In this document: positions 3,158-63,610 of the stretch, one piece after another
How the letters are laid out: each line of letters opens with the position of its first letter
How positions within the stretch are numbered: the first letter of the stretch is position 1
Source of the DNA: a virus
Lineage: Duplodnaviria > Heunggongvirae > Uroviricota > Caudoviricetes
Strand: one strand, 5' to 3'
IMG/VR virus record: IMGVR_UViG_3300028800_000066
Span: 8,207-72,206 of that record
Length of the DNA stretch: 64,000 bases
Notes under the pieces: generated by a model
Told to the model about the DNA's origin: nothing
Databases searched by the model: none
What the model saw: only the letters and a program-made list of their open reading frames with translations
Program-made: the position numbers and the translations under genes

Positions 3158-3170
3158 TGTATGATTTCTC

Positions 3171-3386
3171 CTAGGAATTTTGTTTAGAGATGATTTCTCT
3201 ATCTCTTTTAGTTGTTTCTTTTATGCTATTTAACCTAATAGCAAAAGGATGAGTGCAAATTACTTTAGCTTTCTTGGTCTTAATTAATATTCTGGCTTTT
3301 GCTGATGATGTGGAGCACAAAGCCGTCATATCACCGTTATAAACCGGAATTTTTTCTAAAAAAATTGGCATTCTCAGCCACCTCAT
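3171..3386 (-). CDS. hypothetical small basic protein
   Basis: ORF between the putative decoration and capsid genes. Confidence 0.35.
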   Translation of the reverse strand: MRWLRMPIFLEKIPVYNGDMTALCSTSSAKARILIKTKKAKVICTHPFAIRLNSIKETTKRDREIISKQNS

Positions 3387-3402
3387 TATCTGGTGTTATT
3401 CA

Positions 3403-4068
3403 TTAAATTCCCGTCTTGAAGAAGTTTAAGAATGGATTTCCTGCTGTTGGAGCCTTGGTAACGTAAGCTACCTTGTCCTGACCAACGCGAGTTGTCAAAC
3501 GACCCTGCTGACCGTATGTATTATCAGCTACATAAAGGGCTGTACCTACTGTGTATGTGGAAACTAGAACGCCCGTAGACAATTCATATACGTCAGTGGA
3601 ATACTCACCTTCCTGCAACCAGATAGTGCATTTGCCAGAAGCCAATGTAGTATCATCACCAGCTTTACCTGGAATGATGTAGCTATACGAAACAGTGGTT
3701 GTTGTACCAGGAGCAAGTCCTGTAACTGCAATCGTGCCATTGACCTGGGAAGTCAAAGTGACCGTTCCTGATGGAGTAGCCAAGACGGCTGTGTTCGAAG
3801 CGGCAATAATATTAGCGTGAGCTAATGCTGTTGCGCCTGAAGCAACCACTTCGTTAACAGCCGTAGCTGAGAAAGAAGTTGTCTTGTTGTCATCAATGAT
3901 TCCGACTAAACCAGTTGTTCCAGATGTTGCCAACTGTACTTCTGGGTCGCCTGTGGTAGCGTTAGGAGTAATGAAGCCCATCATACCAGCTTCAGCAACT
4001 AATGCCGCACTTACATTGATGTCACCTTGAGGACCGGACAAATTGGTGTACAATAATTTAAATGACAT
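3403..4068 (-). CDS. putative virion structural protein (Thr/Gly/Ala-rich)
   Basis: Very strong RBS (AAAAGGGGGTGAAAAATATAAATG). Compositional bias typical of decoration or fibre proteins. Position just upstream of the capsid gene. Confidence 0.5.
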   Translation of the reverse strand: MSFKLLYTNLSGPQGDINVSAALVAEAGMMGFITPNATTGDPEVQLATSGTTGLVGIIDDNKTTSFSATAVNEVVASGATALAHANIIAASNTAVLATPSGTVTLTSQVNGTIAVTGLAPGTTTTVSYSYIIPGKAGDDTTLASGKCTIWLQEGEYSTDVYELSTGVLVSTYTVGTALYVADNTYGQQGRLTTRVGQDKVAYVTKAPTAGNPFLNFFKTGI

Positions 4069-7506: not shown

Positions 7507-8949
7507 TTATGCCTTCTTTTGTAAATAATATTTAGTTGCGGCTCTGCTCAATTCCTCTTTAAACTTCAATTCTTTGCTGTTCAATGTTTCATCTTTTTCT
7601 TTCAATCTCTTTCCAAGTGGACCCGCTGGACCTTCCTTGGCACTCTTCTTATAAGCCTCTTCTTCTAAATCTCTTGAGGTCTTACCATCGGTGCCTTGAA
7701 TCTCCAACTTTTCATTTGGATAAATCATTTCCTTATTCTTTTTTCCTTCTTCGAATCTATCATTAATATATCCGGTCATGTTGGGGTCGAATACTTGGTT
7801 GTTCAAATAAGCTGTAGTTGTCTTTCCTTTGTCTGAAGATACAATCAATTCAGTTGTATCAACATTCTTGTTCAACAACTCAGCTACAGCATTCTCAATG
7901 CTTTTAATTCCACCAGCAGAAATCTGGTCTGCGGCGGAATCTTCAAGATTCAAATGCCAAGCCTGTTTATCTTGAGAATATGCTGTCCATTCGTAGTCTT
8001 TCTCGTTTAGAGTTACGCTACCGTTAGCCTTGTAATCTTTCCAGGTCTTACGATATGTTAACTGCTTGATGTCAATTTTAATTCTTAGCATACTTGATAC
8101 CACCTTTACGTTATCATTCTTGCGATTTGCTCTAATGTCAGTTGCACATTCTGTTCCCTTACACTGAGCATCTTCATGCATCTTCAACAAGTTTTCTGGA
8201 ATTAATGAATCGGCTAATTTTGTTTGTCTATCTCCATCAACAGCCTTCTTCAATGAAGCTATTTTCTCAAGAACATTAGCTTCTCTGAAAGCTGGTACAC
8301 CGACCCAAGATAATTCAATAAACTCAAGGTCGTGGTTGACTTCGTGAATGGGCCATGCCCCAAACTTATGTTCGGAATTATTTGTGTACATGCTCATTTT
8401 CATACCCTTGTAACCAGCGATGTGGTCACAATATTCACGGTCTGTTCTTGCGATGTTTCCGCAAACAGAACATTCCGACCAACCAACACGAGTTCCCATT
8501 GAAACGGAATTTACCATTCCAGTTTCAATATCTCGGGCCAACTGTGGATGAGACTTTTTATCTACGGCGATTAAACACTCGACACATCCATCATCTTCGT
8601 TCAAGAAGGCATCAACGACCAATCCTCTGATTGCATTTAAATCATCTGATTTGTGGTCCAGGAAATTACCCTTACCAATAAATGATTGATAGGATGCTCT
8701 TAATTCTTTCATTGGGAATCCATCACCATTCTGGTTTGGTCCCCAATTTTCCAAGCTTCCAATAGCTCTTGTTCTGATATACATAAAATCATGTGAAAGA
8801 GCTAAACTCTTTTTGAACTTAGCTACTTTTGTTTTGAACTGAGCAATAGCAATCTTCGAACCTTCTGAAGAGCCAGTTTGAGATTTTACGGTATCAAAAT
8901 CTTCAGCCTGCTCCAAGAATTGTGCTGTGGCAAATTTAGTAAAAGACAT
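7507..8949 (-). CDS. hypothetical morphogenesis-block protein (480 aa)
   Basis: Large ORF between the scaffold-like and capsid-proximal genes. Function not recognisable. Confidence 0.5.
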   Translation of the reverse strand: MSFTKFATAQFLEQAEDFDTVKSQTGSSEGSKIAIAQFKTKVAKFKKSLALSHDFMYIRTRAIGSLENWGPNQNGDGFPMKELRASYQSFIGKGNFLDHKSDDLNAIRGLVVDAFLNEDDGCVECLIAVDKKSHPQLARDIETGMVNSVSMGTRVGWSECSVCGNIARTDREYCDHIAGYKGMKMSMYTNNSEHKFGAWPIHEVNHDLEFIELSWVGVPAFREANVLEKIASLKKAVDGDRQTKLADSLIPENLLKMHEDAQCKGTECATDIRANRKNDNVKVVSSMLRIKIDIKQLTYRKTWKDYKANGSVTLNEKDYEWTAYSQDKQAWHLNLEDSAADQISAGGIKSIENAVAELLNKNVDTTELIVSSDKGKTTTAYLNNQVFDPNMTGYINDRFEEGKKNKEMIYPNEKLEIQGTDGKTSRDLEEEAYKKSAKEGPAGPLGKRLKEKDETLNSKELKFKEELSRAATKYYLQKKA

Positions 8950-10924: not shown

Positions 10925-12574
10925 TTAAACTGCTGGTGCTTCTCCACCAGGGGCACCAGCGGCTTCGCCACCAATGTCACCAAGGGCGTCTAGACCTGTT
11001 GGTTCTGCGCCTTCAGCGCCTTCACCACCCATGTCTCCACCCATGTCTCCACCCATGTCTCCACCAAAATCTGGGCCACCGCCCTCTTCTGGAGCTTTCT
11101 TTTCTGGACCAGCCTTGCTTTGGTCCTTCTTAACGCTCTCTGAAACATTGATGTTATCAGGGCCAGTGTATGGAAGTTCCTGTTTGTAACCAATTTCCTT
11201 GAATATAGGAATTTCTCTGTTCATCTGGTCAACTTCTTCATCCAATGATAAATCAAGAGTCTTCAACAATGTTCCGACTGAAGCCTTACCTTCCTTGACC
11301 AAGTTTTCAATCGACTGCTGGTATTCACGATTATTCTTAAGATTAATCTTGTCCCAATTTACTTTAGGAATAATTAATTCAGTCTTGCCACCAACAATCT
11401 TTTCAAATCCCTGAAGTTTACAAATGGGTCTGAAAATTTTGATTTCAAGCCACTTCTCAATCAAAGTTCTGAATGATACATATCTCTGTTGTAATACTTC
11501 AAGGGCAACTGATGCATTAGCATAAGTTGGTCCCTCGGAGTGTGTGAAAGCCTTCGATGTGAACAAACCTGTCAACACACGGTCTTCAATTCTGTCCATC
11601 TCGCCGTCAAGAGGCAATATGACGCCTGTTGAGCCAACATATTGAACTTCAAGTCCTGGGTGAGTTACTAAAGTGAAATTTGGGTCATAAGTAGCTTGTT
11701 CTAACATCTCACGGAACGCCACAAGGTCATCGGATGTTGGACGATATGTACCGTCAGCAGTACCGACCTTGAAAATCTTAAGTGGTGTAATGTGGTTATC
11801 CGCGATTGAGAACTGTGCTTCACGGAGCTTGTCACGATACATCAAGTCCTTGAACACACGAGTTAATATAGAAGTACCACGAACATCATAAGGTGAGTTC
11901 TTACGAGCCAAATGCGATACGTATCTCTGACTTAGAGGAATATTCTTGCCAGCATAAACATAAGCAAGAACTTCTGGGTCAATCTGACCTCTAAGAGCTA
12001 CATCATCTGGATTTGTAGATGTGACCAAACGTTTTAATTCATCGTCTGGAATAAGTGAAATCATCGAAGTGGTAAGAACGTTTGATTTGACTTCGATATA
12101 ATCTGGATTCTGAATGATAATCTTTGACCATTCTCCTATGTTCAAATCCAATTCAGCATAAGGGAATACTTCACCGATAATGTTAAATTCTTTACCAATG
12201 TCATAGATTATAGATGAGAAATTCAACCTATCCAACATTTGATTAAAGAATTTTGTAATTGCTGGGTCGGATGACTTAACGCCGAAAGCTGAAAGTGGGT
12301 AAGTTGAGTGAAGGTCGAGAGCGTTACCAACCCAAGGGTCGGTTGCATAGTAATGTCTTGCCCAAGCATTAACTTCACGCCTGTCTCTCGGCAACATTAA
12401 ATTCGACTCTTCATAGAATGGCGAGAAGGGTCTCGGCGTAATTCTTACAACTTGTGAATTAGCCATACGAGTCATTCCACCTGTGGGAATCACTGAATTT
12501 CTATTCATAGAACCATTCTTGCTGATGGACCTTTGAATAGACCTACTGTTATCCATACTTATTCTGTTAAACAT
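10925..12574 (-). CDS. putative portal protein
   Basis: 549 aa, immediately downstream of the terminase region. C-terminal GGDMGGDMGGDMGG repeat tail. Assignment by position and size only. Confidence 0.5.
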   Translation of the reverse strand: MFNRISMDNSRSIQRSISKNGSMNRNSVIPTGGMTRMANSQVVRITPRPFSPFYEESNLMLPRDRREVNAWARHYYATDPWVGNALDLHSTYPLSAFGVKSSDPAITKFFNQMLDRLNFSSIIYDIGKEFNIIGEVFPYAELDLNIGEWSKIIIQNPDYIEVKSNVLTTSMISLIPDDELKRLVTSTNPDDVALRGQIDPEVLAYVYAGKNIPLSQRYVSHLARKNSPYDVRGTSILTRVFKDLMYRDKLREAQFSIADNHITPLKIFKVGTADGTYRPTSDDLVAFREMLEQATYDPNFTLVTHPGLEVQYVGSTGVILPLDGEMDRIEDRVLTGLFTSKAFTHSEGPTYANASVALEVLQQRYVSFRTLIEKWLEIKIFRPICKLQGFEKIVGGKTELIIPKVNWDKINLKNNREYQQSIENLVKEGKASVGTLLKTLDLSLDEEVDQMNREIPIFKEIGYKQELPYTGPDNINVSESVKKDQSKAGPEKKAPEEGGGPDFGGDMGGDMGGDMGGEGAEGAEPTGLDALGDIGGEAAGAPGGEAPAV

Positions 12575-13387: not shown

Positions 13388-15133
13388 TTATCTTCTAAAT
13401 ATATTAGGGAACATTGGAGAATTAGTTGGACCACCAATGCGTGTTGGTTTACCTGAAAAACTTGATGTTACTATTTTTGGCAATCCCAAGTTCATTGATT
13501 GACCACCAAAATTTGGACCAAGGCCAGTTTCACCAAGCTGAACAACTGAGGCGATGTATGCATAATTCAAGCTATGCAAGGCGTCATTAGGTTCTTCATT
13601 TTTAAATTTTTCATAGCTCTTTAATATGTTGCCAGTTCTTTCTGAATACTTTAATTCCATATTACAAATCTGTTTGATGAACCAACTGACTTTTTCAGGT
13701 TCTCTAAATGGAATTATTAAATTACCTCGTTTGATAACTTCGACCAAATCTTCAATGAAAGAATTTCTATCGACGGACAACTGCCAAGTGTCGTTATCAT
13801 ATTTAAGTTTATTTTTAATATTGGTGGAGTAGAAGCAAGATTTTACCTTATTCTGCCAAGTCTTTTGTAGCTTCTGGCACTGTGGTCCACCAAATCCAAT
13901 GTCGGCAACAACTGACGAACAATTATATAATCTAATCATGTCCGATATATACTGAACTTGTTTTTCCCAATCTGGATTCATCAGTCTTTCTGTATTTTCT
14001 AATGTATATTGACCAGTAGCGCGGTCCTTGCTTAGGATGGTCATTACGGTGTAAGCGCCCTTGTCTTTAATATCATTTCTTCCACCCCAGTCAAGACCCA
14101 TGAAGGTTTGTTTTGGTGGCTGAACTGATTTGGAAAGAGACATGTTTCTATAAGGCTCAGCGCAACGATTGGCAACCTCTTCTTCGGTGAGCGGTCTTCC
14201 GGCTCCGGAATAGAATTCTCCGAGCACCTCGTTTTTGAATCTTTCTTCAGAGTATTCAATCTGTCTAAGATTGATTTGCTCTCTAGTGATTCTTGGAGAA
14301 AGAAGCTGAGATACATGGAAGCCCACACGCTCTGTACCAAACTTAGATGGAATCCACTTTCCGTCCTTCATGATAATGCGTTTGTCGCTCATCTTCTTAC
14401 ACTTGGGACATTCGACCATGAATCCAGTCTTAAAGTTATCTAATGTAATCTGAAAATAATGTGAACAAGAAGGACACTTTAAATGGAAATATCTTCTGTC
14501 AGATGACATCCACAAAGTATCAAATTTGGAACCCGCTAACTTTGGTGTACCAAATGAGAAATCAATTTTATAGTCAGAAGCATCAAGACATGAATTGGTG
14601 TTAGCAATAGCGTCTGAAGTCCAGTCCTGGAATTCATCTCTGGAAAGCATGTCGGCTGGAATACCACGCAAGGCGTCAGCCTGTCCCCATGCTGAGTAAA
14701 TATAATAATGATTTTCGTTTGCGAATTCGATGGACGATACCGTATCTGAACCAGTTTTGTTTTTCAACTTCTCAAGTTTCGGTATTCTATCAATTTTTTG
14801 ACTTGTTCTAATCGACTGTTGTAAACGGTCTTTCGAATAACGTGAAGCCTGTTCGCTTCTTGGAAAAGCGTGAAGAACTGTAAAGTCAGAATAATTCTTC
14901 AAGAAATATAATGATATGTTGAGGGCTGTTTCGGTCATTTCAACCTGACGGCCCTTACATATAACAATTGGCTTATGTTCAATCATCGAACCTATGCAAG
15001 CATATCTATACAAATCGACTAAGTATTCTCTGCCAGTACCGATGATTTTAAAATTCTTACCCTTTACTGTTCTATGTGTTTCAATAAAATAGATGGGGTC
15101 CAAATTAAGTGCTGTATCCAGTAAACTTTCCAT
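13388..15133 (-). CDS. terminase large subunit
   Basis: Walker-A-like CKGRQVEMTET. Large size. Adjacent to portal. Start moved to Met16 (GGAAGGG RBS). Confidence 0.7.
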   Translation of the reverse strand: MESLLDTALNLDPIYFIETHRTVKGKNFKIIGTGREYLVDLYRYACIGSMIEHKPIVICKGRQVEMTETALNISLYFLKNYSDFTVLHAFPRSEQASRYSKDRLQQSIRTSQKIDRIPKLEKLKNKTGSDTVSSIEFANENHYYIYSAWGQADALRGIPADMLSRDEFQDWTSDAIANTNSCLDASDYKIDFSFGTPKLAGSKFDTLWMSSDRRYFHLKCPSCSHYFQITLDNFKTGFMVECPKCKKMSDKRIIMKDGKWIPSKFGTERVGFHVSQLLSPRITREQINLRQIEYSEERFKNEVLGEFYSGAGRPLTEEEVANRCAEPYRNMSLSKSVQPPKQTFMGLDWGGRNDIKDKGAYTVMTILSKDRATGQYTLENTERLMNPDWEKQVQYISDMIRLYNCSSVVADIGFGGPQCQKLQKTWQNKVKSCFYSTNIKNKLKYDNDTWQLSVDRNSFIEDLVEVIKRGNLIIPFREPEKVSWFIKQICNMELKYSERTGNILKSYEKFKNEEPNDALHSLNYAYIASVVQLGETGLGPNFGGQSMNLGLPKIVTSSFSGKPTRIGGPTNSPMFPNIFRR

Positions 15134-15411
15134 ATACCCTTCCAAATCTATACTGCGCCACACTATAGTTAGTAGCATGACGCAGTATAATTTATTCTGT
15201 CATACTCATTATAACAAATCAAATGTCAATTTGTTATATTATTTTGACATTAATTATTGATGCTTGTGGAACTGTAAAGCTCTCATTGCGGCATGGGCAT
15301 CACCACAAGAATCGTGATGACTTAAAACCTTTCCGCTATGACTATCTAAAACCACCCATTTTCCGCCGCGATTCTTAATAAATTCAGTCTCGTGGCATGG
15401 ACCATCAGCTT

Positions 15412-30995: not shown

Positions 30996-31010
30996 TATTT
31001 ACCTTAATTG

Positions 31011-31359
31011 TGGAGGCGGTGGGAATCGAACCCACGTCCAAACAACTTTCCAAATTCAATCTACGTGTGTGTTCGGTTTTGCAGTCCGACAACTGTATTC
31101 GTTTTGTCCGTTTCGTTTTCATCTTAGCAGGGCAGAGTTATAACTGTCAGACTAATAAACTCTTACACTGAGCATCCTAAAGCGGCTCTGAAATTCACAC
31201 CTATAGGAGTCGGTGGTCAGAGTAGTCGCTATTAAGCGGCTAGTAGTTCCATTTCTTCGGCATTTCAATTTGTCTGCAAAGGTTTTTAGAGGGCCTTCAC
31301 GACAACTCCCTCACACGCATGAATGTTGTACTGTTATCTGTCGAAACCAAGTCGCCCCC
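31011..31359 (-). ncRNA. ssrA: tmRNA (SsrA)
   Basis: 5' GGGGGCGACUUGGUUUCGACAG. 3' tRNA-like end GGACGUGGGUUCGAUUCCCACCGCCUCCA. Internal tag reading frame ...GCC GAA GAA AUG GAA CUA CUA GCC GCU UAA UAG (AEEMELLAA). Confidence 0.8.
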
Positions 31360-37397: not shown

Positions 37398-37420
37398 TTA
37401 TCACCAGAAGAATGTTGTGT

Positions 37421-37493
37421 GCCGTGGGCGGGACTTGAACCCGCAAATTATGCATTCTGAGTGCATTGCCTATGCCATTCGGCTACCACGGCA
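37421..37493 (-). tRNA. tRNA with anticodon CAG (Leu codon CUG) but type-I short variable arm
   Basis: Clean cloverleaf gccgtgg|ta|gcc-gaatggcata-ggc|a|atgca-CTCAGAA-tgcat|aattt|gcggg-ttcaagt-cccgc|ccacggc|a. A73 discriminator. Confidence 0.6.
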
Positions 37494-38347: not shown

Positions 38348-38579
38348 AGTCTAATACTGGCTTGCTTACAGCTTCTAACATTTTTTCAATATCATACTTT
38401 AAATCAGAAACCTCTTCTCCCGTCATTTCTACAGAGTTTTCAGAGATTCCGTTGGGATTTCCATCCTTATCATACCATACTGTGTGAATGGCAAAATAAG
38501 TATAACCATCAGGATAAATCTTGTTTAATGATTCAGCGACGGGTTTGTTACGCTTGATTAGTCTGTAATTCCATCCCAT
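38280..38579 (-). CDS. hypothetical protein
   Basis: ORF. Confidence 0.35.
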   Translation of the reverse strand: MGWNYRLIKRNKPVAESLNKIYPDGYTYFAIHTVWYDKDGNPNGISENSVEMTGEEVSDLKYDIEKMLEAVSKPVLDYAIFEEMEKKHAPVESDNRSDS

Positions 38580-39687
38580 TTTTTCCTCGTTTGAAATTAC
38601 CGACCTTATAGGCCAATTGTAATTTCCGAACTTCTTCCTGTTCCTCTTTGCTGAAACTCAATCCAGCTTTCACAGCGTAACGTAATTGATTGTTGAAAAG
38701 ATTTCCGCACGTACTTTCTGAAATGCTTAAAGTTTTTGCGATTTCAGGATAACTGAATCCCTTTAGAATCATTTCTCTAGCTGAGCGAATAATCTCAATC
38801 GAGAATTTTTGTTGAGCCTTAGAAAGATTATCCAAATTCGTGTCACTAATCCTTCTCTTAGCAAGAGAAATGTTGGCTCTTGCTTCTTCCGAGAAAACGC
38901 GGCCATTATTGTTTCTTCCATTACAAGACAAGTTCTCATCCAGATTTTCTGTGTGCATGAGAATACGCAATCTACGGAAAGCTATAAAAGTGATTTGACG
39001 AGCACGTTCAGTTGTCAATCCCATCACAACAGCCATTTGCTTATAGGTTTTGTGATTAAAATAGTATTCTCGGATTGCCATGCGTTCCTTGATGGTTAAC
39101 TTATTGTTGATTACCTTGATAAGCTTCGTCCGTAAATCTTTATCATCTAACTCTTCTGCCAAGTTATCTTCAATCTCAACAGTCTCATTATCCGGAATCA
39201 CATCGTTATAAGAACGATTAGTCCCATCATCAGAAAGCAAGGGAGCGTTTAGATAAATCAACCTATCATTCATGTGAGCCCTGGCTTCTTCCTTATGATT
39301 CTCATAATCACCAGTAGGAATTTTCAGGATGTGATTAGCTCTCATGCAATGTTGCATCTTCTGATTAATCCAGTATGCGGAATAAGTCAAGAATTTAAAC
39401 TTACGATTAACTTTAAACTTTTCAAGACTATGCATAAATCCGATAACGCCAGCATTAAAGAAATCATCAACTTCGATACTGGGATTAATCCGGTGAAAAC
39501 GATGTGCTTGTTTACGAATAAAACGAATATGATTCTGGAAAATTAATTCTCTGAATCTATATTTGTCATCTTCGTTCTTAGCACTTTTATATTGTTTAAT
39601 CAATTTAAGAATCTCTGGATACTTTAAAACCTTCTGCTTAAGCAGAAAAATCATTTCAGGAGATTCTTTACTGGTATCAAACGACAT
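38548..39687 (-). CDS. sigma-70 family sigma factor with extra C-terminal HTH
   Basis: Region 2-like FNAGVIGFMHSLEKF...YSAYWINQ. Region 4-like ERMAIREYYF...MAVVMGLTTERARQI. Additional SYPEIAKTLSISESTC HTH. Confidence 0.6.
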   Translation of the reverse strand: MSFDTSKESPEMIFLLKQKVLKYPEILKLIKQYKSAKNEDDKYRFRELIFQNHIRFIRKQAHRFHRINPSIEVDDFFNAGVIGFMHSLEKFKVNRKFKFLTYSAYWINQKMQHCMRANHILKIPTGDYENHKEEARAHMNDRLIYLNAPLLSDDGTNRSYNDVIPDNETVEIEDNLAEELDDKDLRTKLIKVINNKLTIKERMAIREYYFNHKTYKQMAVVMGLTTERARQITFIAFRRLRILMHTENLDENLSCNGRNNNGRVFSEEARANISLAKRRISDTNLDNLSKAQQKFSIEIIRSAREMILKGFSYPEIAKTLSISESTCGNLFNNQLRYAVKAGLSFSKEEQEEVRKLQLAYKVGNFKRGKNGMELQTNQA

Positions 39688-39802
39688 TTTTCACCAAAGA
39701 AAACTTTATCATCTACACATAAGTCATTATACCACATAAAGGTAAAAAAGTCAAGCCCTCTAACGGATTGTTAGAAGGCTTAACAGTTTTCCAACACTCT
39801 TG

Positions 39803-39875
39803 AGCTGGCGGAGGGAATCGAACCCACGACATCCTCATTACAAGTGAGGTGCTCTACCAACTGAGCTACGCCAGC
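39803..39875 (-). tRNA. tRNA-Thr (TGT)
   Basis: Loop CTTGTAA. Standard cloverleaf. Confidence 0.8.
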
Positions 39876-39889
39876 ATTGAAAATTTCTG

Positions 39890-39969
39890 AGCTATCTGAG
39901 AGAATCGAACTCTCGCTGGTTTCCCGCCCGATTACAAATCGGGTGCCATTCCACTCGGCTCAAGATAGC
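39890..39969 (-). tRNA. type-II (long variable arm) tRNA with anticodon loop TTTGTAA (TGT by canonical numbering), identity uncertain
   Basis: gctatct|tg|agcc..ggca|cccga-TTTGTAA-tcggg|cgggaaaccagc|gagag-ttcgatt-ctctc|agatagc|t. Confidence 0.5.
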
Positions 39970-39986: not shown

Positions 39987-40060
39987 TGGAGCGGGGTGCG
40001 GGAATTGAACCCGCGCATCATCCTTGGCAAGGACGTAGGCTACCATTACATCAACCCCGC
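39987..40060 (-). tRNA. tRNA-Gly (GCC), CCA encoded
   Basis: Loop TTGCCAA. Confidence 0.75.
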
Positions 40061-41470: not shown

Positions 41471-42325
41471 TTATTCAAGATGTTCAACTACACTTCTCAA
41501 GATTTTAGCGGTGGTCTGTCTCAAAGTTCTGTGATGTTTAACCACGCCATAACCATGATACTCTTTATTCATTTCAATCAAAAGCTTGTGAGCGGCTTCC
41601 CTATCTGGACCATGAGGAAGTTGAGTCTTTGTATAAAGTTCATCACAAAGAGCTTCGAGCCTTTTTGCTTCTTCTAGAAAACGTTCCTTGCTCCATTCAC
41701 CCTTTTTGACGGTTAGAACAAGCTGGTTTTCTTTTAGAGGAAGCGTGATTTTGCCAGTTGACAAAAGCTCATTAGCCTCAAGATACAATCTAAGAGCGTG
41801 AGAAGCCATCTTAGTATCATATCCAAACTTCTGAATCAATTCTTGTCTTCCACTTCCATTATCTTCGCCACGCTGTAGTCTCTGGACCTGAGTGTGGCTA
41901 TAACCTTTAAAGCTGTGATAGCTTTTCTTGGACAAGAAGATTTCTTTGTTATCAAAAAGCTTCTGCCCTAGAGGATGTACGTATAACCTGCAATTCTCCG
42001 GAACAAATAATGTTTCTAAAGTATTCGGATTGTTATTTAGAAGCAATTCCATAAACTTTGGAAGTGCATACAATGTGCAATCCATATCAGCGGAAGTATT
42101 CTTCTTTCCAGAACCCGTATCGTTGGTTCTGAATTCTACCTGTTCGATGTTCTTCAATCCCAAAAGATACTCTTCGTCAGGCATGAATACACCAACAAAG
42201 TCCTGGTCGCTCTTGCCTGGGATATTGGTTCCATACATGACCGACCCAACACGTAGGAATAGCAAGCAGTTTTCGACTGCCATCTTCCTCTCGACTGTGT
42301 TTTGTAGAAGTTCTGTATGTTTCAT
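41471..42325 (-). CDS. Pol-beta superfamily nucleotidyltransferase
   Basis: GSVMYGTNIPGKSDQDFVGVF (GS...[DE]xD nucleotidyltransferase signature). Driven by consensus promoter P1. Confidence 0.55.
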   Translation of the reverse strand: MKHTELLQNTVERKMAVENCLLFLRVGSVMYGTNIPGKSDQDFVGVFMPDEEYLLGLKNIEQVEFRTNDTGSGKKNTSADMDCTLYALPKFMELLLNNNPNTLETLFVPENCRLYVHPLGQKLFDNKEIFLSKKSYHSFKGYSHTQVQRLQRGEDNGSGRQELIQKFGYDTKMASHALRLYLEANELLSTGKITLPLKENQLVLTVKKGEWSKERFLEEAKRLEALCDELYTKTQLPHGPDREAAHKLLIEMNKEYHGYGVVKHHRTLRQTTAKILRSVVEHLE

Positions 42326-44687: not shown

Positions 44688-44700
44688 GATTACCTCTCGG

Positions 44701-44788
44701 TAGTCGTGTAGGGAATCGAACCCTAGTTAGGCTGTCATCTACAGCTAGGAGTTTATAAGGCTCCCTCGGTGCCACACCTCGCACGACC
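44701..44788 (-). tRNA. 88-nt type-II tRNA with anticodon loop CTTATAA (TAT, Ile AUA, by canonical fold), identity uncertain
   Basis: Good acceptor and T arms. 22-nt variable arm with gctgt/acagc stem. AC stem has a C-A mismatch. A73. Confidence 0.5.
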
Positions 44789-46554: not shown

Positions 46555-46642
46555 TGACCAAGGAGAGATTCGAACTCTCACGCCCATTACAGGCAACGGT
46601 ATCTAAAGCCGTCATGTCTACCTATTTTTTCATCACTCGGCC
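46555..46642 (-). tRNA. type-II tRNA, probable Leu (TAG) with oversized D-loop
   Basis: Acceptor ggccgag/cttggtc (2 G-U). AC stem acggc/accgt with loop TTTAGAT. Variable arm tgcctgtaatgggcgt. Fold less certain than the others. Confidence 0.45.
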
Positions 46643-46748: not shown

Positions 46749-46761
46749 GTTATTACTTTCG

Positions 46762-46837
46762 TGACCTCCCTCGGATTCGAACCGAGACGTAAACTAGGTT
46801 TGAGCTAGTTCCCTCTACCAAATTGGGGTAGGAGGCC
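46762..46837 (-). tRNA. tRNA with anticodon CAA (Leu UUG) but type-I short variable arm
   Basis: ggcctcc|ta|ccc..ggg|a|actag-CTCAAAC-ctagt|ttacgt|ctcgg-ttcgaat-ccgag|ggaggtc|a. A73. Confidence 0.55.
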
Positions 46838-47562: not shown

Positions 47563-47595
47563 AAATTTGTCAAGCCCTTTTATCGTTTCATAATG

Positions 47596-47669
47596 TGAAC
47601 CAGATGGGACTCGAACCCATATAACTCCCTTACGTTATCCCGCTTCGGAGGCGAGAACGGTACTGGTCC
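47596..47669 (-). pseudogene. tRNA-like element (74 nt) without a D-arm; possible tRNA pseudogene or tRNA mimic
   Basis: Good acceptor ggaccag/ctggttc and T-arm atggg-ttcgagt-cccat. The internal region folds as ctcgc-CTCCGAA-gcggg (anticodon-like CCG) enclosed by cgtt/aacg, so there is no room for a D-arm. Confidence 0.35.
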
Positions 47670-47670
47670 A

Positions 47671-47826
47671 TCACTTTTTCTTTCTAGCTTCTTTCAATCT
47701 CTTTTTTCTATCTTCGATTGCTTCTTGTAATTTCTTAGCGAATTCATCATTTCTTGGTCTGTTTCTGGATTCTGGTCTTACATTGATTTCACTTGGAATT
47801 GGTTTAATTGGCTCAATTTTATCCAT
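47671..47826 (-). CDS. small Lys/Arg-rich ORF (51 aa)
   Basis: MDKIEPIKPIPSEINVRPESRNRPRNDEFAKKLQEAIEDRKKRLKEARKKK. Immediately downstream of the kinase gene. Confidence 0.35.
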   Translation of the reverse strand: MDKIEPIKPIPSEINVRPESRNRPRNDEFAKKLQEAIEDRKKRLKEARKKK

Positions 47827-48420
47827 TTAATTAGTACCAGTCCTTAAATTATTTAGCCACTCTTGTAGCTTTTTATCAATCACTTCTTCATCGCCATCAT
47901 TAACTAGGACAAGATTGCAACGACTAATCTCTTCATGAGTTATAAAAACGGAATCAACCTGGGCTTCTGCAACTTCTCTTGATATATTTCTTCCATGAAT
48001 CAGTCTTTCTAACCTAACTTCTCTAGGTGCAGTCACTAGAAGGATGTTATCAAACAACTTCTCAGCACCAGATTCGAACAATACAGGTATATCAAAGAAT
48101 AACATTTTATTTTCGACTGCCTTATGTCGTTCAATTACTTTTCTGATTTCATCCAAAATTCCAGGGAACATCAGGTCGTTAAGTTTCTTCAATTCCGTTC
48201 TGTTATTAAAAACTAAGATAGCTAACTTTTTCGTATCAAGACCGCCATCTTCTTTAAGATATTCTTTCCCAAACAAGTCAATAATTCTGGAAACAAACTT
48301 ATGTCGAATATTTCTAGCCAAATCATCTACATCATAAACACAATAACCATTTTGTCTTAAGCTTTGTGATATTTTAGATTTTCCAGAACCACTAGGTCCA
48401 GTAATCCCGATGACTTTCAT
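47827..48420 (-). CDS. coaE: P-loop kinase, dephospho-CoA kinase (CoaE)-like
   Basis: MKVIGITGPSGSGKS Walker A. DVD and LN..HP motifs align with CoaE. Could equally be a polynucleotide or nucleotide kinase of the same fold. Confidence 0.6.
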   Translation of the reverse strand: MKVIGITGPSGSGKSKISQSLRQNGYCVYDVDDLARNIRHKFVSRIIDLFGKEYLKEDGGLDTKKLAILVFNNRTELKKLNDLMFPGILDEIRKVIERHKAVENKMLFFDIPVLFESGAEKLFDNILLVTAPREVRLERLIHGRNISREVAEAQVDSVFITHEEISRCNLVLVNDGDEEVIDKKLQEWLNNLRTGTN

Positions 48421-50169: not shown

Positions 50170-50556
50170 TTACCAATCCAATGTTCCAGCATTAACACAG
50201 GCTACACCAAAAACAGCGCCAACAGCTACATCCAATAACTCTGCCTTGAAATGAGTTTTGTCGTTTTTATGTAAAGCTTCCATCATTTCACGATGTTCTT
50301 CATCTACTACACCAGCGATTTCGTGAGTTGAAGCAAATGTTCCATAACCTTTTTGTTTAAGTCTACGATTAAGTTCTAATCTGAATTCCATAACAGCTTG
50401 TTCAATTTGTTCTTGCGTAATTTCCAGTCTAGCATTAGCCATTTGTTCTCCACGCGCAGGAACTTCCATGTCCGAATCCAGTCCCGCCATAAGGGCATCA
50501 ATTTCGCTCTGACTTAATATATCGTCCACTCTATGCTCTGAGAAGATTTCGCTCAA
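50170..50556 (-). CDS. MazG-like all-alpha NTP pyrophosphohydrolase (putative)
   Basis: ASTHEIAGVVDEEHREMMEAL...ELLDVAVGAVF acidic helix pattern. Confidence 0.45.
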   Translation of the reverse strand: MSEIFSEHRVDDILSQSEIDALMAGLDSDMEVPARGEQMANARLEITQEQIEQAVMEFRLELNRRLKQKGYGTFASTHEIAGVVDEEHREMMEALHKNDKTHFKAELLDVAVGAVFGVACVNAGTLDW

Positions 50557-51550
50557 CGGCTTGACCGTGCATCCAATGTTTCACGGTCTGGATGTGATTC
50601 TTTCTCACATATTTAGCCGCAGACTTTCTAAAATCACCGTATGAAAACTTGTCAGCAATTCTGATTACATATCCTTCTTTGCTCTGCCAATTTTCTTTGT
50701 TGTACAAAGCTTTAATTTTTGTCTCATCATAGATTCCATCATACAAAACTGGAACGCTTTGGATGTTCAAAAGATTAAACCAAGAAGCCGTATCATCCCA
50801 ATCCAGGCATTCGTTCTTTTCATTCCAAACCGAGAATCCCATGAAATAGGTGGGGAGATTATCGTAGCCAATTGAGTGTTTGGCCCAAAGATTCTCACCG
50901 CAGACTCTCCAACCTTCGGGGATATCGTTAGCGATTGCCGCCCAAAAGTTCTTTACCCAATTTCTAGAAACATGAGTGTCACTGTTTATACTTCTTGCAT
51001 GGATGTGGTCACGATACATTGTCGTGTTTTCTCCATCCATTTTTTCTGTAACAATAACTCTTTTACCTTCAAAACTTTTCATGTTCTCAATCATGCGGTC
51101 ATCATCGTTCATGTTTTCCGACCAAGGAACATGGTATGTTCTAGGATATTTTACATAACTGGTAAACTGTCCGAGAACATCAGCTAAAATCTTTTGGACG
51201 CTCAAATCGTAAAACAACTCACCTTTAAGTCTTTGACCATTGGGAAGAATAATGTTTCCCCATTTATCGTAAGTCTGGTCGTGATAGAAATGTTCTGGAA
51301 GAACTGGTTTAGTAATTCCGCACTTCTCACGAACTTGTTCCACAGAAATATTGGTCTTTTCACATTCAATGTGATGTTCTTCGCAAACCGAAGCGCCATT
51401 GTTTAGAAAATAACCGCCATTTCCCCAAATCCTACGTTCAATTATATGGTGTGCATCTGCCGCTGGTTCTCCACAAAATACGCACTTATGACCATCTCTT
51501 TTGAAGACGCCCTCACGGAATTCATCACGAGTGAGCAATTTGGATTCCAT
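50531..51550 (-). CDS. HNH nuclease fused to ATP-dependent RNA ligase-like nucleotidyltransferase
   Basis: N-terminal CVFCGEPAADAHHII...CEEHH. Ligase motif I TEKMDGEN (KxDGxN), motif IV EGYVIR, motif V AAKYVRK. Confidence 0.55.
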   Translation of the reverse strand: MESKLLTRDEFREGVFKRDGHKCVFCGEPAADAHHIIERRIWGNGGYFLNNGASVCEEHHIECEKTNISVEQVREKCGITKPVLPEHFYHDQTYDKWGNIILPNGQRLKGELFYDLSVQKILADVLGQFTSYVKYPRTYHVPWSENMNDDDRMIENMKSFEGKRVIVTEKMDGENTTMYRDHIHARSINSDTHVSRNWVKNFWAAIANDIPEGWRVCGENLWAKHSIGYDNLPTYFMGFSVWNEKNECLDWDDTASWFNLLNIQSVPVLYDGIYDETKIKALYNKENWQSKEGYVIRIADKFSYGDFRKSAAKYVRKNHIQTVKHWMHGQAVERNLLRA

Positions 51551-54017: not shown

Positions 54018-55721
54018 TTAACCCTTGATGAAGTCACTCATCACGGCTGGGGCAGATGAATCGAATCCTACCACGTCTAACATTCCAGCATCGTTAGGGT
54101 CTGCAATCGTGAAATCATTCGTAACCATACCAACCACAACTGACTTGGCATTGTTACTAGACTGCTTGCGATATTCTGCAAGAGCCTGATGTGGGTGAAT
54201 TCTTCCAGCATAAGTCTCGTTATCGGTGTAGACAAAGAAAGCATCTACATCTAACTTATTCTGCTTTGCATAAACCATCGGCAAAGAGCAATCAGTTCCA
54301 CGGAAAGGAAGATTATTGATGACTGAGATTACATCATCCAATCTCTTCTTTCCAGAAATGTTCAAGTCAATGAACTCTGTCGAGAATCCCTTGATATAGA
54401 CGTTCTTCTCAACCTTTGCAGTAACCATTGCCATAGCCGCGCTTACCACTCTTGGCGTAAGACCTGGAATACCAGAAATTGAACCGCCGTCCATTGAACC
54501 AGACACGTCCAAGGCCAACATGATGTTCTTTCCAGTTGGCTCAACATTATCAAATGCTGTGTAGAAAGCAGAATCCAATGCGTCCACAACTGTCTGGACC
54601 GGAGTCCAGGAATTTCCACCACGCTCACCGTGACCCTGCTGATAAACCTTCAAGGCCGACAATAACTGAATCGGATGCACTCTCGCCTTCTTCAAAGCCT
54701 CTACATTAGCAAGCTTTTCAGCGACAAGCTTTGAACCCTGTGAAAGCGGTGCAATCAATCCAACTCTTGTCATTGTTGCAATATTACGAATCATTGCAGT
54801 CAATGGCATGTGCGGAAGTAATGCATCCCACACTTCAATGGTGTTAAGTAACTCTGTAGGAACAGCTTCACGAGGAAGTTCGTGTTCTCTAATCAATCCA
54901 ACAATTTCAGAAGCAGTCGTTGCCCTCTGAGCCTGTTCGAAAGCATTAATCATCGGGTGGATATTGACGATAAGCTTTCCTTCATTGTCATAGTGCGACT
55001 TTACCCATGACTGAATCTGCTCGTGCTTCTCGGAATACTTCACCTTTGCCGAATCGTTCTTGGCAGAGACAGGGGCATCCTTACCAGCCTTATACTTATT
55101 CCACGCAACCCACTGATAGATATCATTACGTGCGGCATCAGCGGTCTTCAAGTGAGCAAGACGCAACGCATCACGATGTTCAAAACCTTCACGATTACGA
55201 TACTTAATAACCTGTAATGCAAGGCCATCCAAGTTCTTCTCGTTATACCAACGCTGAACTGCCTTACGCAATCCAGTACCAGTTCCCTTGCCAATGGTGT
55301 CCGCAATCGACAAGAACTGGAACAAATGTGTGGCGATTCTGCATACCTTTGAAAGGTTCTGATATGCATACGCACGAGTAGCCGCATCACCATGCTTTAC
55401 GACAAGCGCAAGAGCAAACACAGCGGGGTCATTCTTTGGAGCGCGACCATTGTGAGAAATTTCCACAATAGTATCAACAGTCTTGCGACCATTTTCCTTC
55501 ACGCACTCCAAGATGCACTTCGCACTGTCCTGTGTCATCTTGTGCTCGGATGCATAATACGAGCCACCCTCGTTTCCAAGAATCAAGAAACGGTTTAAAC
55601 GGGTCCAGTTGTCTACCTTGAATGTAAAGCCACCCGCGCTGTTTGGAACCTGATTGCTTCCGAATACCTTCTCGGACTGGGGTGTAACCTTAGTTGAAAC
55701 GTGCGAAGCATAGTTTGACAT
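54018..55721 (-). CDS. vWA-domain protein with Ro60/TROVE-like architecture (Rsr-like, inferred)
   Basis: C-terminal vWA MIDAS LALDVSGSMDG...T...D. About 400-aa helical N-terminal module. 567 aa matches the Ro60 size and domain order. GGAAGAGGAG RBS. Own consensus promoter. Confidence 0.5.
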   Translation of the reverse strand: MSNYASHVSTKVTPQSEKVFGSNQVPNSAGGFTFKVDNWTRLNRFLILGNEGGSYYASEHKMTQDSAKCILECVKENGRKTVDTIVEISHNGRAPKNDPAVFALALVVKHGDAATRAYAYQNLSKVCRIATHLFQFLSIADTIGKGTGTGLRKAVQRWYNEKNLDGLALQVIKYRNREGFEHRDALRLAHLKTADAARNDIYQWVAWNKYKAGKDAPVSAKNDSAKVKYSEKHEQIQSWVKSHYDNEGKLIVNIHPMINAFEQAQRATTASEIVGLIREHELPREAVPTELLNTIEVWDALLPHMPLTAMIRNIATMTRVGLIAPLSQGSKLVAEKLANVEALKKARVHPIQLLSALKVYQQGHGERGGNSWTPVQTVVDALDSAFYTAFDNVEPTGKNIMLALDVSGSMDGGSISGIPGLTPRVVSAAMAMVTAKVEKNVYIKGFSTEFIDLNISGKKRLDDVISVINNLPFRGTDCSLPMVYAKQNKLDVDAFFVYTDNETYAGRIHPHQALAEYRKQSSNNAKSVVVGMVTNDFTIADPNDAGMLDVVGFDSSAPAVMSDFIKG

Positions 55722-57256: not shown

Positions 57257-57760
57257 TTATTTCTTTGAATCGTTTTCTCTTATCTGTTCAATCGTAAAAC
57301 CATTGTTTATATAAACAACAAAATCAATCTTATATGTATCTGAAACTCTATTCAAAATACCTTCAACAACATTCCAATTTCCTCCAGCTAATCCGCATCC
57401 AATCAATGGAAGAGCAAGAGTCTTTAGGCTCTTTGAAAGCATATCAAGACAAACACCTGACAGGCTTTTTTCTAAAGCTCCGTAATCTAAATCCATTCTT
57501 CCAACATTTCTTCCCCTATAATCAAACTGGGAATAAATATTGTATCCAAATTTTCCATCAGGCAATTGCAAGTAAGTATAAGCGCCCAATTTCTGCTGTG
57601 GAGTAAATGGACTTTTACAATCCGCAATTTCATACATCGCAGGCCATTTAGCTCTTACCGCTTTCGCAACACCACTACCCATTGTAGATTGGCAATTACA
57701 CCCGTGACCGAATGCATCTTCTGTGAAAGCAAGTAAATCACCAGTCTTATAAGTAATCAT
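57257..57760 (-). CDS. macro-domain protein (ADP-ribose binding/hydrolase-like)
   Basis: GDLLAFTEDAFGHGCNCQSTMGSGVAKAV and later IGCGLAGG resemble MacroD-type motifs (GD..x..DA..N..x..G.GV.. / G.G..G). Confidence 0.55.
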   Translation of the reverse strand: MITYKTGDLLAFTEDAFGHGCNCQSTMGSGVAKAVRAKWPAMYEIADCKSPFTPQQKLGAYTYLQLPDGKFGYNIYSQFDYRGRNVGRMDLDYGALEKSLSGVCLDMLSKSLKTLALPLIGCGLAGGNWNVVEGILNRVSDTYKIDFVVYINNGFTIEQIRENDSKK

Positions 57761-62354: not shown

Positions 62355-62990
62355 TTACGCTTTTTCCTCGAACTTTGTGTAAATATCCTGTAATTCCCTA
62401 GACATTTGTGTATAATGTTTACCGATTAAACCTTTCTTTCTTAACCATTTCAAATCGTTTGAAAGATAGGCATTCATTTCATCAATCAATTGTTTCTTGG
62501 AATAACCCTTCTTTATCAAGAAGGCGCTTAATTCTTTAACGTCTTTATCTTTAAAATAATTCTTAATTACTTTTCTATATTCAGGAACCATTGAAAAAGA
62601 AGCGTGTGTTACTTCATGATTGATTGTTTCTTTTTCAGTTCTATCTCTCATGAATGTTCCGATAATGTAAAATTCTCCCTTTACATTACGAAACAAATCC
62701 AAGAACTGTTGTTCTTTATTGCTAAGAGGATTGAACTTTCCTTCATAGAATGGTTTTAAATCTTTTGAAGGAACATTATATCCAGTCCAATCTTCATAGT
62801 ACGTGAATCTCTTTTTGTTTTGAGTCTTCATATACCATTTCTTAAATTGCGCTAACGTAAAAACTTTACCTGAAAATTCTGGTGATTCAAAATATTCTTC
62901 GAACCTCAACAAAGTGGAAGTCAAATCGTATCTTGTCTCAAATCTGACATGATACACGTAAGAGTTGATTTTGGTGAGTTCAATTTTCAT
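62355..62990 (-). CDS. hypothetical protein (partner of small RNA-ligase-like gene)
   Basis: ORF translationally coupled to the upstream ligase-like gene. Confidence 0.5.
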   Translation of the reverse strand: MKIELTKINSYVYHVRFETRYDLTSTLLRFEEYFESPEFSGKVFTLAQFKKWYMKTQNKKRFTYYEDWTGYNVPSKDLKPFYEGKFNPLSNKEQQFLDLFRNVKGEFYIIGTFMRDRTEKETINHEVTHASFSMVPEYRKVIKNYFKDKDVKELSAFLIKKGYSKKQLIDEMNAYLSNDLKWLRKKGLIGKHYTQMSRELQDIYTKFEEKA

Positions 62991-63610
62991 GCTAATTGTT
63001 CGAAGAGTTTCTCGTCACCTTTGCATAGCGTTTTTAATTTCTGCATCCAAGCTTCACTCTTTATCTTGAACATTATGGTTTGGCGGTGTTTATCTAACTC
63101 GTTGGACTTGCAAACTACACCTTCAAAAGTTACGCCGATAGCAGTTCCATCCTTTACAGATGAAATAAATTCATGATTCAAGTTTCCTTGATAAATAAAA
63201 TTAGAGATATCAAGATGTCCAGCAATCCTTAAAAACTCTCTCGGACCAATCACGCCCTTTTTGAAAACATCAATATCAAAAAGTTTTACATCGTGTGTCT
63301 CGTTCTTTTCGTGTCTACCAGCGAAAGAACTAGGTCCATAATATTCAAAGAACGCAGTTGCTCTTTCAAATCTTTCTCTTCTAAATATGTCACTAAGTTG
63401 TTGCTCATACTTGGCTTTAATCAATTGGATTGATTCACCAAGTAATTCATCCGTATGGTCTATAAGATGATGTCTGCTTCCGAACTTAGAAAGACCATTC
63501 TTCCTATCCCACTCCGCTCTTATATTGGAACCATCTAATTTATCAAAAGCGTAGATATAAATATTTTGTGTCTGCTTTGATATTGTAGGATATTGTTTCA
63601 TGACCTTCAC
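62987..63610 (-). CDS. small nucleotidyltransferase, RNA/DNA ligase-like (KxDG family)
   Basis: Motif I FDKLDGSN. Motif IV FEGVVCK. Motif V MFKIKSE. Second ligase-like gene in the window. Confidence 0.5.
   Translation of the reverse strand: MKVMKQYPTISKQTQNIYIYAFDKLDGSNIRAEWDRKNGLSKFGSRHHLIDHTDELLGESIQLIKAKYEQQLSDIFRRERFERATAFFEYYGPSSFAGRHEKNETHDVKLFDIDVFKKGVIGPREFLRIAGHLDISNFIYQGNLNHEFISSVKDGTAIGVTFEGVVCKSNELDKHRQTIMFKIKSEAWMQKLKTLCKGDEKLFEQLA

Follow-up and report, generated by a model that had tools for sequence, protein, structure and literature searches.

The window analysed here is a stretch of 64,000 nucleotides (nt) from a metagenome-assembled phage genome (IMG/VR record IMGVR_UViG_3300028800_000066, positions 8,207 to 72,206). 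In its array of tRNA genes, between a tRNA-Gly(GCC) and an ordinary tRNA-Thr(UGU), lies a gene that joins a threonine anticodon to a long variable arm (Table 1). By textbook account, long variable arms belong to Leu, Ser and (bacterial) Tyr tRNAs and to tRNA-Sec.

The long-arm gene and its threonine determinants

ARAGORN called the gene tRNA-Thr(tgt) at 39889-39969 (-), with 81 nt and the anticodon at position 34. The Rfam tRNA model RF00005 matched 39890-39969 with 51.8 bits (gathering score 29; E = 2.5e-9 in a 5-kilobase (kb) search), over the full model and with two insertions. The sequence reads GCUAUCU-UGA-GCCG-AGUGGAA-UGGC-A-CCCGA-UUUGUAA-UCGGG-CGGGAAACCAGC-GAGAG-UUCGAUU-CUCUC-AGAUAGC-U, and pairing is complete in all four stems. 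The discriminator is U73. An initial annotation, made from the letters alone, had called the gene non-canonical, with a 7-nt anticodon loop and the anticodon TGT. ARAGORN, the Rfam alignment and the sequence confirm the loop and the anticodon, and a variable region above 10 nt (12 nt) combined with a Thr anticodon is indeed non-canonical. Single-sequence minimum free energy folding gave a non-cloverleaf structure (-29.1 kcal/mol, z = -2.5), which we take as uninformative for a tRNA.

Table 1. Coordinates of the long-arm tRNA gene, its parts and other features of the window.
Feature	Position	Strand	Basis or remark
Long-variable-arm tRNA-Thr(UGU), 80 nt to discriminator U at 39890; CCA not encoded	39890..39969	-	ARAGORN, Rfam RF00005, family model R1
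Acceptor stem, 5' strand GCUAUCU, 7 base pairs (bp) with AGAUAGC (39891-39897); G1-C72, C2-G71, U3-A70	39963..39969	-	
Three-base connector between acceptor and D stems: U8, G9 and an extra A (canonical: two bases)	39960..39962	-	
D arm: stem GCCG/UGGC (one G.U pair), loop AGUGGAA (7 nt), then A26; class-I-like geometry	39944..39959	-	ARAGORN drawing
Anticodon arm: stem CCCGA/UCGGG (5 bp), 7-nt loop UUUGUAA, anticodon UGU at 39934-39936	39927..39943	-	
12-nt variable region CGGGAAACCAGC: mini-hairpin of two G-C pairs and GNRA tetraloop GAAA	39915..39926	-	
T arm GAGAG-UUCGAUU-CUCUC	39898..39914	-	
tRNA-Gly(GCC), first gene of the Gly/Thr/Thr cluster	39990..40060	-	ARAGORN and Rfam
Canonical class-I tRNA-Thr(UGU), 73 nt, 14 nt downstream of the long-arm gene	39803..39875	-	Rfam, 73.1 bits
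Terminator-like hairpin and T run, closing the Gly/Thr/Thr cluster	39750..39784	-	Consensus match only
Sigma-70 promoter (11/12) for the sigma-factor gene 38548-39687, after the terminator-like hairpin	39726-39754		Consensus match only
Large terminase	13388-15178		
Portal	10925-12574		

The loop could also, the initial annotation suggested, be read as a Tyr-like GTA with one extra base, which would give an 8-nt loop. The trinucleotide GUA does stand at positions 35-37, as it does in any UGU tRNA that has A37, so the substring is not special. The loop has 7 nt, with U33, UGU at 34-36 and A37 in place and closure by A31-U39, as in every tRNA-Thr(UGU); the GUA reading leaves one base 3' inside the closed 5-bp stem. 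Neither ARAGORN nor Rfam refolds the gene as a standard tRNA-Tyr(GUA), the check that the annotation had proposed. A comparison with frameshift tRNAs, which have expanded (8-nt) anticodon loops, again found a 7-nt loop on a 5-bp stem. We give practically no weight to a shifted register or an expanded loop by which the tRNA would read GUA (Tyr codons) or a quadruplet.

The acceptor end is of the threonine type. G1-C72, C2-G71, U3-A70 and U73 are common to the long-arm gene and to the phage's own tRNA-Thr(UGU), tRNA-Thr(CGU) and tRNA-Thr(GGU); all four genes begin with GCU and end with the discriminator U. The best pairwise matches of the long-arm gene within the window are tRNA-Thr(CGU) and tRNA-Thr(UGU). 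Bacterial Thr identity rests on G1-C72, C2-G71, (G4-C69, G5-C68), G35 and U36, without a strong role for position 73 (PMC9976931, Table 1). The corresponding elements are A73, G34 and U35 for Tyr, A73 and tertiary elements for Leu, and G73, G2-C71, C11-G24 and a large arm for Ser, and C2-G71 is a listed antideterminant against the seryl-tRNA synthetase SerRS (PMC9976931). The long-arm gene has G1-C72 and C2-G71 in GCUAUCU/AGAUAGC and G35 and U36 in UGU.

The variable region has class II length, above 10 nt, but the anticodon UGU is not one for Leu, Ser or Tyr, and U73 with C2-G71 stands in place of A73 (Leu, Tyr) or G73 and G2-C71 (Ser). A class II helical arm is defined as 3-7 bp (PMC11245113); the window copy has two G-C pairs and GAAA, and its relatives have 2-4 bp. 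The attribution to a Leu/Ser/Tyr-type body in the initial annotation does not hold, as the D arm is class-I-like and the acceptor stem and discriminator fit both the phage tRNA-Thr genes and the bacterial Thr set. These elements give the gene the appearance of a Thr tRNA to which a hairpin was added, and not of a Leu/Ser/Tyr body with a mutated anticodon.

Conservation and a family of long-arm tRNA-Thr genes in phages

Proteins identical to the sigma factor of the window (38548-39687) occur on contigs of up to 110 kb in ENA and JGI samples. No relatives of this sigma factor were found in IMG/VR, and no close DNA relatives of the window among 50,697 GenBank phage records, which gave just generic tRNA matches. 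Five contigs with the identical sigma factor carry an identical long-arm copy and are uninformative. The contig L007 (Logan ERR14790938) encodes a sigma factor 69% identical to that of the window. Its long-arm gene has 78/80 bases in common with the window copy (97.5%), and the differences form one compensatory pair, U5-A68 to C5-G68. The neighbouring tRNA-Gly(GCC) and tRNA-Leu(UAG) are 78% and 82% identical, respectively. The canonical tRNA-Thr(UGU) of L007 has decayed (no ARAGORN call; Rfam 18.3 bits). The same L007 allele, with an encoded CCA and in a different gene neighbourhood, is present on the JGI contig L008. L007 also has a second long-arm gene, a tRNA-Thr(CGU) with the arm AAGGGAAACCUAGA, which is syntenic with the ordinary tRNA-Thr(CGU) of the window; arms are therefore gained or lost between close relatives.

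We noted three further details of these contigs. In L008, a GC-rich spacer of about 330 nt (150-480), structured by eye and without an Rfam match, separates the long-arm tRNA-Thr from two tRNA-Gln genes. Downstream is a TilS-like open reading frame (ORF; PP-loop, SGGVDS motif). The canonical tRNA-Thr(UGU) of the window (39803-39875) has a U50.U64 mismatch in the T stem where five sister contigs have G50.U64, the sole difference over a 301-nt alignment.

The comparison with L007 bears on whether the long-arm gene is a decaying duplicate, a pseudogene of the adjoining tRNA-Thr(UGU) with insertions. A normal tRNA-Thr(TGT) had been annotated 15 nt downstream; the gene is there, at a spacing of 14 nt. 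This proximity would suit a pseudogene, as would the extra base at the 8/10 junction, the second-lowest Rfam score of the nearby Gly and Thr genes and the presence of other degenerate-looking tRNAs in the array. However, the stems are perfectly paired, the long-arm gene is better conserved than its neighbours and changes in a compensatory way, decay in L007 hits the canonical copy, and all of the 58 related sequences described below keep 7/7 acceptor pairs. We consider a pseudogene very unlikely.

To survey relatives, we scanned IMG/VR with an arm pattern (TNGTAA-N6,7-GGGAAACC-N8,9-TTCGA). It recovered 59 loci, and 57 of these were called tRNA-Thr(UGU) of 80-86 nt by ARAGORN. The same pattern matched 42 times in 596 gigabases of bacterial and archaeal sequence (185,579 species, one genome each). 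Only three of these matches were tRNAs, all on short contigs of metagenome-assembled genomes that carry 3-5 tRNAs. Neither the anticodon/variable segment of the window copy nor its D arm had an exact match in IMG/VR. A second IMG/VR scan used the D arm of the majority, TCGCATAGYGGCNATTGCA, and gave more than 120 loci among the matches listed. Users of this D arm among the matches listed were tRNA-Tyr(GUA) (at least 80 calls), tRNA-Thr(UGU) (at least 60) and a few tRNAs for Trp, Lys, Ser and Asp; the arm sequences in these loci, again among the matches listed, are not limited to GGGAAACC.

Together, the pattern scans yielded 58 distinct long-arm Thr(UGU) sequences from 72 viral contigs and a few other loci. 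We aligned 50 of them. Standard pairs fill 99.5% of the stem cells, and in 21 of the 23 pairs both partners have changed. The extra-arm helix covaries in each of its three pairs, where G-C, A-U, C-G and U-A all occur, and the arm loop stays GNRA (GAAA, GCAA or GUAA). None of the shuffle and slid controls came near these pairing values. C2-G71 is present in 50/50 members, and U33, G35, U36, A37 and A38 are invariant (50/50); at position 34, the 49 UGU members have U and the single CGU member has C.

We define the family by the loop YUUGUAA, C2-G71 and a 12-14-nt variable arm of the type C-(N)GG-GNRA-CC(N)-NNC. The window copy has all of these, with the arm CGGGAAACCAGC against CGGGAAACCUAC in the family, and arms of its type (C-GG-GAAA-CC-NNC) recur among the IMG/VR relatives. 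The Tyr-type D arm of the majority, TCGCATAGYGGCNATTGCA, is replaced in the window by UGA-GCCG-AGUGGAA-UGGC-A. The extra connector base requires a one-base insertion in both the Rfam alignment and that of R1, a covariance model built from 44 members with the window's clade left out; it is kept in L007 and L008 and missing from the other 47 aligned members. R1 nevertheless ranks the long-arm gene first in the window, at 68.4 bits, ahead of the canonical tRNA-Thr (59.3) and tRNA-Ser(GGA) (57.6). We file the window copy as a structural member of the family that may or may not share an ancestor with the majority.

The connection with Tyr drawn in the initial annotation finds a partial echo here, as the D arm of the commonest IMG/VR relatives is identical to that of phage tRNA-Tyr(GUA); the window copy is without it. 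Among the matches listed, the Thr genes on this shared body have G1-C72 in 100%, C2-G71 in at least 95%, G4-C69 in 37/40 (93%) and G5-C68 in 24/40. The Tyr genes have G2-C71 in 75% and A73 in 97%, and the Trp genes have G73 throughout and both A1-U72 and G2-C71 in two of three (all among the matches listed). The acceptor stem tracks the anticodon across the shared body. Global pairwise identity between family members and other phage tRNAs is 0.65-0.76 for many isotypes and does not resolve ancestry. As a separate observation, the IMG/VR loci L126, L134, L145, L164, L121, L205 and L198 combine the TCGCATAGYGGCNATTGCA D arm and a long arm with the anticodons of Trp(CCA), Lys(CUU) and Asp(GUC), with fitting acceptor ends; this hints that one class II scaffold has switched identity repeatedly.

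At the 72 viral loci, the long-arm gene is nearly always the sole tRNA-Thr(UGU) nearby; one locus has a short copy too. The family is phage-restricted and undescribed in the literature that we searched: full-text searches, of incomplete coverage, found no description of a long-arm tRNA-Thr in phages. Such genes are annotated as plain 'tRNA-Thr', and the long arm is overlooked.

Decoding and the possible role of the arm

ACA makes up 34% of the Thr codons in 64 ORFs and 287 of the 15,398 codons counted overall. We profiled the ten ACA columns of the Ro60 protein over 106 homologues (about 50% identity) and found 57% Thr, a share similar to that in ACT columns (53%). Thr reaches 94% or more in four of the ten columns and 77% in another, and Ser, Tyr and Leu are not in excess. 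The ACA columns are thus conserved as Thr, and the phage therefore expects Thr at ACA.

These data weigh on the idea of a mischarging or recoding tRNA, in which a class II body would be charged with Ser, Tyr or Leu, by synthetases that depend on the long arm or disregard the anticodon, and would place that amino acid at ACA in the manner of allo- and nev-tRNAs. Precedents exist (PMC7609411), the variable region exceeds 10 nt, and the family is similar to phage tRNA-Tyr bodies, with A73 in most of its IMG/VR members. However, with U73, C2-G71, an arm of 2 bp and a D arm of class-I type, the window copy shows no determinant for Ser, Leu or Tyr. Acceptor features follow the anticodon over the shared body, and ACA is frequent enough that misreading would be costly. 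With a Thr-type body and a canonical 7-nt loop, misincorporation is therefore unlikely; decoding is most likely faithful, and a mischarging tRNA is highly improbable.

The Tyr(GUA), 8-nt-loop, Ser/Leu/Tyr-mischarging and pseudogene readings were rejected on the evidence of fold, identity and conservation.

We interpret the gene as probably encoding a functional and faithful Thr-tRNA with a conserved, selected extra arm, one of a widespread phage family. It would be co-transcribed with tRNA-Gly(GCC) and the canonical tRNA-Thr(UGU), processed, and given its CCA tail by a CCA-adding enzyme. The host threonyl-tRNA synthetase (ThrRS) is predicted to charge it with Thr through G1-C72, C2-G71, G35 and U36, and the tRNA would then read ACA, and ACG by wobble.

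As for the arm, our leading hypothesis, held tentatively and at somewhat less than even odds, is evasion of host defence nucleases that target tRNAs. The arm may protrude between the 3' strand of the anticodon stem and the D loop and make the tRNA a poor substrate for nucleases that attack host tRNA-Thr(UGU), so that the phage could continue to decode ACA once the host tRNA is destroyed. This position makes steric protection plausible. P2-OLD is reported to kill by degrading host tRNA-Thr(UGU), with phage tRNA-Thr(UGU) genes rescuing the cells (PMC12445682). The PARIS nuclease AriB is described as targeting Lys(UUU), Thr(UGU) and Asn(GUU), cleaving between positions 40 and 41 while a second subunit touches D-loop bases 16 and 17 (PMC12409363). 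Phage tRNA-Thr(UGU) genes are documented replacements for host tRNA lost to defence nucleases (PMC12445682, PMC12409363). A long-arm Thr tRNA is not described in the sections consulted of either paper (PMC12445682, PMC12409363), and the P2-OLD paper nowhere uses the word 'variable' (PMC12445682).

Several points weigh against these interpretations. The immediate clade contains only two alleles, so that the local compensatory evidence amounts to a single event. Most of the covariation across the family is contributed by members whose D arm is different and Tyr-like; these members are perhaps analogues and not direct homologues. The arm of the window copy has just two Watson-Crick pairs, and the extra base between U8 and the D stem is atypical. 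G4-C69/G5-C68 are replaced by A4-U69/U5-A68 (C5-G68 in L007), and G4-C69 is also missing from the ordinary Thr(CGU) and Thr(GGU) genes of the phage. ThrRS is a class II synthetase that docks from the variable-loop side, so that an additional arm might impede charging. A search near the long-arm Thr genes gave no partner protein, the best ORF cluster occurring at 17/72 long-arm loci and 16/94 control loci. As to nuclease evasion, the anticodon stem has retained CNG/CNG (CCG/CGG), along with a UAAUC motif; these resemble the recognition features of OLD and AriB, and it is the arm itself that would have to confer any resistance.

Another reading is a tRNA-like RNA that does not decode, for example a decoy that titrates a nuclease or toxin specific for tRNA-Thr, or a processing or priming element. 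The retained motifs and the canonical copy next to the gene fit this idea, and phages do counter tRNA-targeting systems. However, in most relatives the long-arm gene is the sole nearby tRNA-Thr(UGU), and conservation extends to everything that aminoacylation and decoding require, namely U33 and A37, the T loop, G18 and G19, and the determinants in the acceptor stem. We consider a non-decoding role about as improbable as a pseudogene.

The strongest rival is a functional Thr-tRNA whose arm is a neutral relic, left by remolding of a class II (phage tRNA-Tyr-type) gene or by a tolerated insertion. The main IMG/VR family has exactly the D arm of phage tRNA-Tyr(GUA), and the same body recurs with anticodons for Trp, Lys, Asp and Ser, which hints at gene duplication with a switch of identity. 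In addition, the 12-nt region of some members is unstructured (ACACAAAC type), and the search for a partner protein gave none. On the other hand, the covarying helix and the constant GNRA loop point to selection on the hairpin. The arm also occurs on class-I-type D arms (the window copy and the Thr(CGU) of L007), and the syntenic Thr(CGU) without an arm in the sister phage indicates gain or loss on a short time scale, not mere inheritance. When the canonical copy decays, the long-arm copy is retained. We regard a neutral relic as unlikely, though far less so than a pseudogene or a decoy.

Other tRNAs with long arms were observed in this and related phages. In phages related by their Ro60 protein (71-80% identity), long-arm Asn(GUU), Lys(CUU) and Lys(UUU) genes lie at L219 12673-12757, L220 2118-2200 and L222 4797-4882 and 5818-5900. 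The arms of the Asn(GUU) gene and of the L220 Lys(CUU) gene are capped by GAAA. The discriminators fit the isotype, with G73 in Asn and A73 in three Lys genes; the L222 Lys(CUU) has U73 and an A1.A72 mismatch. L222 also encodes a protein similar to class-I release factors (2488-3471; PCRF and RF-1 domains) and, by ARAGORN, a tRNA with a four-base anticodon (tggg; 8120-8200), possibly a quadruplet or expanded-loop tRNA. In the window, a 90-nt 'tRNA-Ile(UAU)' at 44699-44788 (-) falls below the Rfam gathering score; its variable region spans some 21 nt, its first pair is G1.U72 and its anticodon stem contains a C.A mismatch (compare L220 19620-19710). Variable regions of 24-27 nt are found in 12 of the 26 distinct Ile(UAU) sequences from the IMG/VR loci fetched, and these genes look like a second long-arm family.

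We counted variable arms of at least 10 nt in the viral loci gathered here, leaving out tRNA-Thr, Leu, Ser and Tyr. They occur in 35/346 tRNAs with U36 (reading ANN codons) and in 22/734 of the other isotypes (odds ratio 3.6, p = 3e-6), a comparison drawn from a biased sample of loci, which counts against reading much into the excess. It is conceivable, if rather doubtful, that phages have repeatedly 'armoured' tRNAs of class-I identity (chiefly Thr(UGU), but Lys(UUU/CUU), Asn(GUU) and Ile(UAU) as well) with short GNRA-capped arms that sterically block nuclease docking and leave aminoacylation and decoding intact. Several of these species are targets of Toprim-type nucleases (PARIS AriB, P2-OLD). 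If the idea is true, it would add both a structural class of tRNA and a principle of counter-defence, each of them new.

Even for tRNA-Thr alone, a conserved, covarying and phage-restricted arm on elements that all specify threonine would constitute a new structural class. The family provides a testable hypothesis for how phage tRNAs escape tRNA-targeting immunity, and natural scaffolds for how ThrRS, EF-Tu and the ribosome tolerate an added arm.

Genome setting and likeness to known tRNAs

ARAGORN predicts 41 tRNA genes in the window; they fall within 31.4 to 64 kb, and all are encoded by the minus strand. The Rfam search supports 39 tRNAs and also detects a transfer-messenger RNA (RF00023, 116.7 bits, full length) at 31008-31359 (-), just upstream of the array and not in the ARAGORN list. 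Other proteins of the window include a protease-like protein, several sigma factors and the Ro60/TROVE protein. No aminoacyl-tRNA synthetase was found in the window, where all eight ORFs longer than 400 amino acids were scanned.

The array also contains an RNA ligase, Ro60 and a kinase-like gene, a combination consistent with an arms race over tRNA. Genes of RNA-surveillance or repair type are interspersed among the tRNAs, all on the minus strand (54018-55721, 50531-51550, 62987-63610, 47827-48420, 41471-42325 and 57257-57760). They comprise Ro60/TROVE with a vWA domain, an RNA ligase, a weak second RNA-ligase-like ORF, a CoaE/AAA_18 kinase-like ORF, an RlaP nucleotidyltransferase and a Macro domain. 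The Rfam matches at the gathering threshold include no Y RNA.

Some tRNAs of the array are unusual in other ways. Two genes with Leu anticodons (CAG, CAA) and A73, at 37419-37492 (-) and 46761-46837 (-), have a short variable loop of class-I length. They are the converse anomaly, Leu without a long arm, and the CAA gene falls below the Rfam gathering score. An 86-nt 'tRNA-Arg(CCG)' at 47595-47680 (-) has two A.G mismatches in the acceptor stem, an extra arm of 5-6 bp and an Rfam score of 32.2 bits. An 88-nt tRNA-like gene at 46555-46642 (-) passes Rfam (37.1 bits) and is not called by ARAGORN.

The long-arm gene resembles canonical bacterial and phage tRNA-Thr(UGU) in the loop YUUGUAA, G1-C72, C2-G71, the 7/5 acceptor/T architecture and the location in a phage tRNA cluster. 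It differs from them in a 12-nt hairpin variable region in place of 5 nt, in the extra base before the D stem, and in A4-U69 and U5-A68 instead of G4-C69 and G5-C68. The resistant phage tRNAs published so far evade nucleases by substitutions in the anticodon stem and D loop.

With class II tRNA-Tyr, Ser and Leu, the family shares a stem-loop variable region above 10 nt, and its IMG/VR relatives share the D arm of phage tRNA-Tyr(GUA). The variable arm of bacterial tRNA-Tyr has 13 nt, close to the 12-14 nt of the family arms. The window copy departs from this class in its Thr anticodon, U73, C2-G71, a 4-bp D stem with a 7-nt D loop and two arm pairs, and is without the class II determinants A73, G73, G2-C71 and G34-U35.

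A BLAST search of the phage collection with the window gene gave matches of 21 bases only, and a cultured member of the family (MG592671) was not among them. This member, 79.5% identical to the family consensus query, lies at 185237-185316 in the 349-kb Vibrio phage 2.275.O._10N.286.54.E11 and is annotated as tRNA-Thr (TGT). It shares with the family the arm CGGGAAACCTTC, a GCU... acceptor and A73-CCA, and it differs from the window copy in a Tyr-like D arm, TCGCATAGTGGCAATTGCA, and in having no extra base.

To our knowledge, the known exceptions to the textbook distribution of long arms, allo-tRNAs and nev-tRNAs, keep Ser or Leu identity and hence mistranslate. The nev-tRNAs of nematodes have long arms and anticodons outside Leu, Ser and Tyr, retain Ser or Leu identity and mistranslate. 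Allo-tRNAs likewise combine a long arm and such anticodons with Ser or Leu identity, which leads to mistranslation (Mukai et al. 2017, reviewed in PMC7609411). They have a 12-bp acceptor domain of 8/4 or 9/3 acceptor/T architecture (PMC7609411). In contrast, the window gene is 7/5 and its identity elements go with its anticodon, and faithful Thr decoding is therefore expected.

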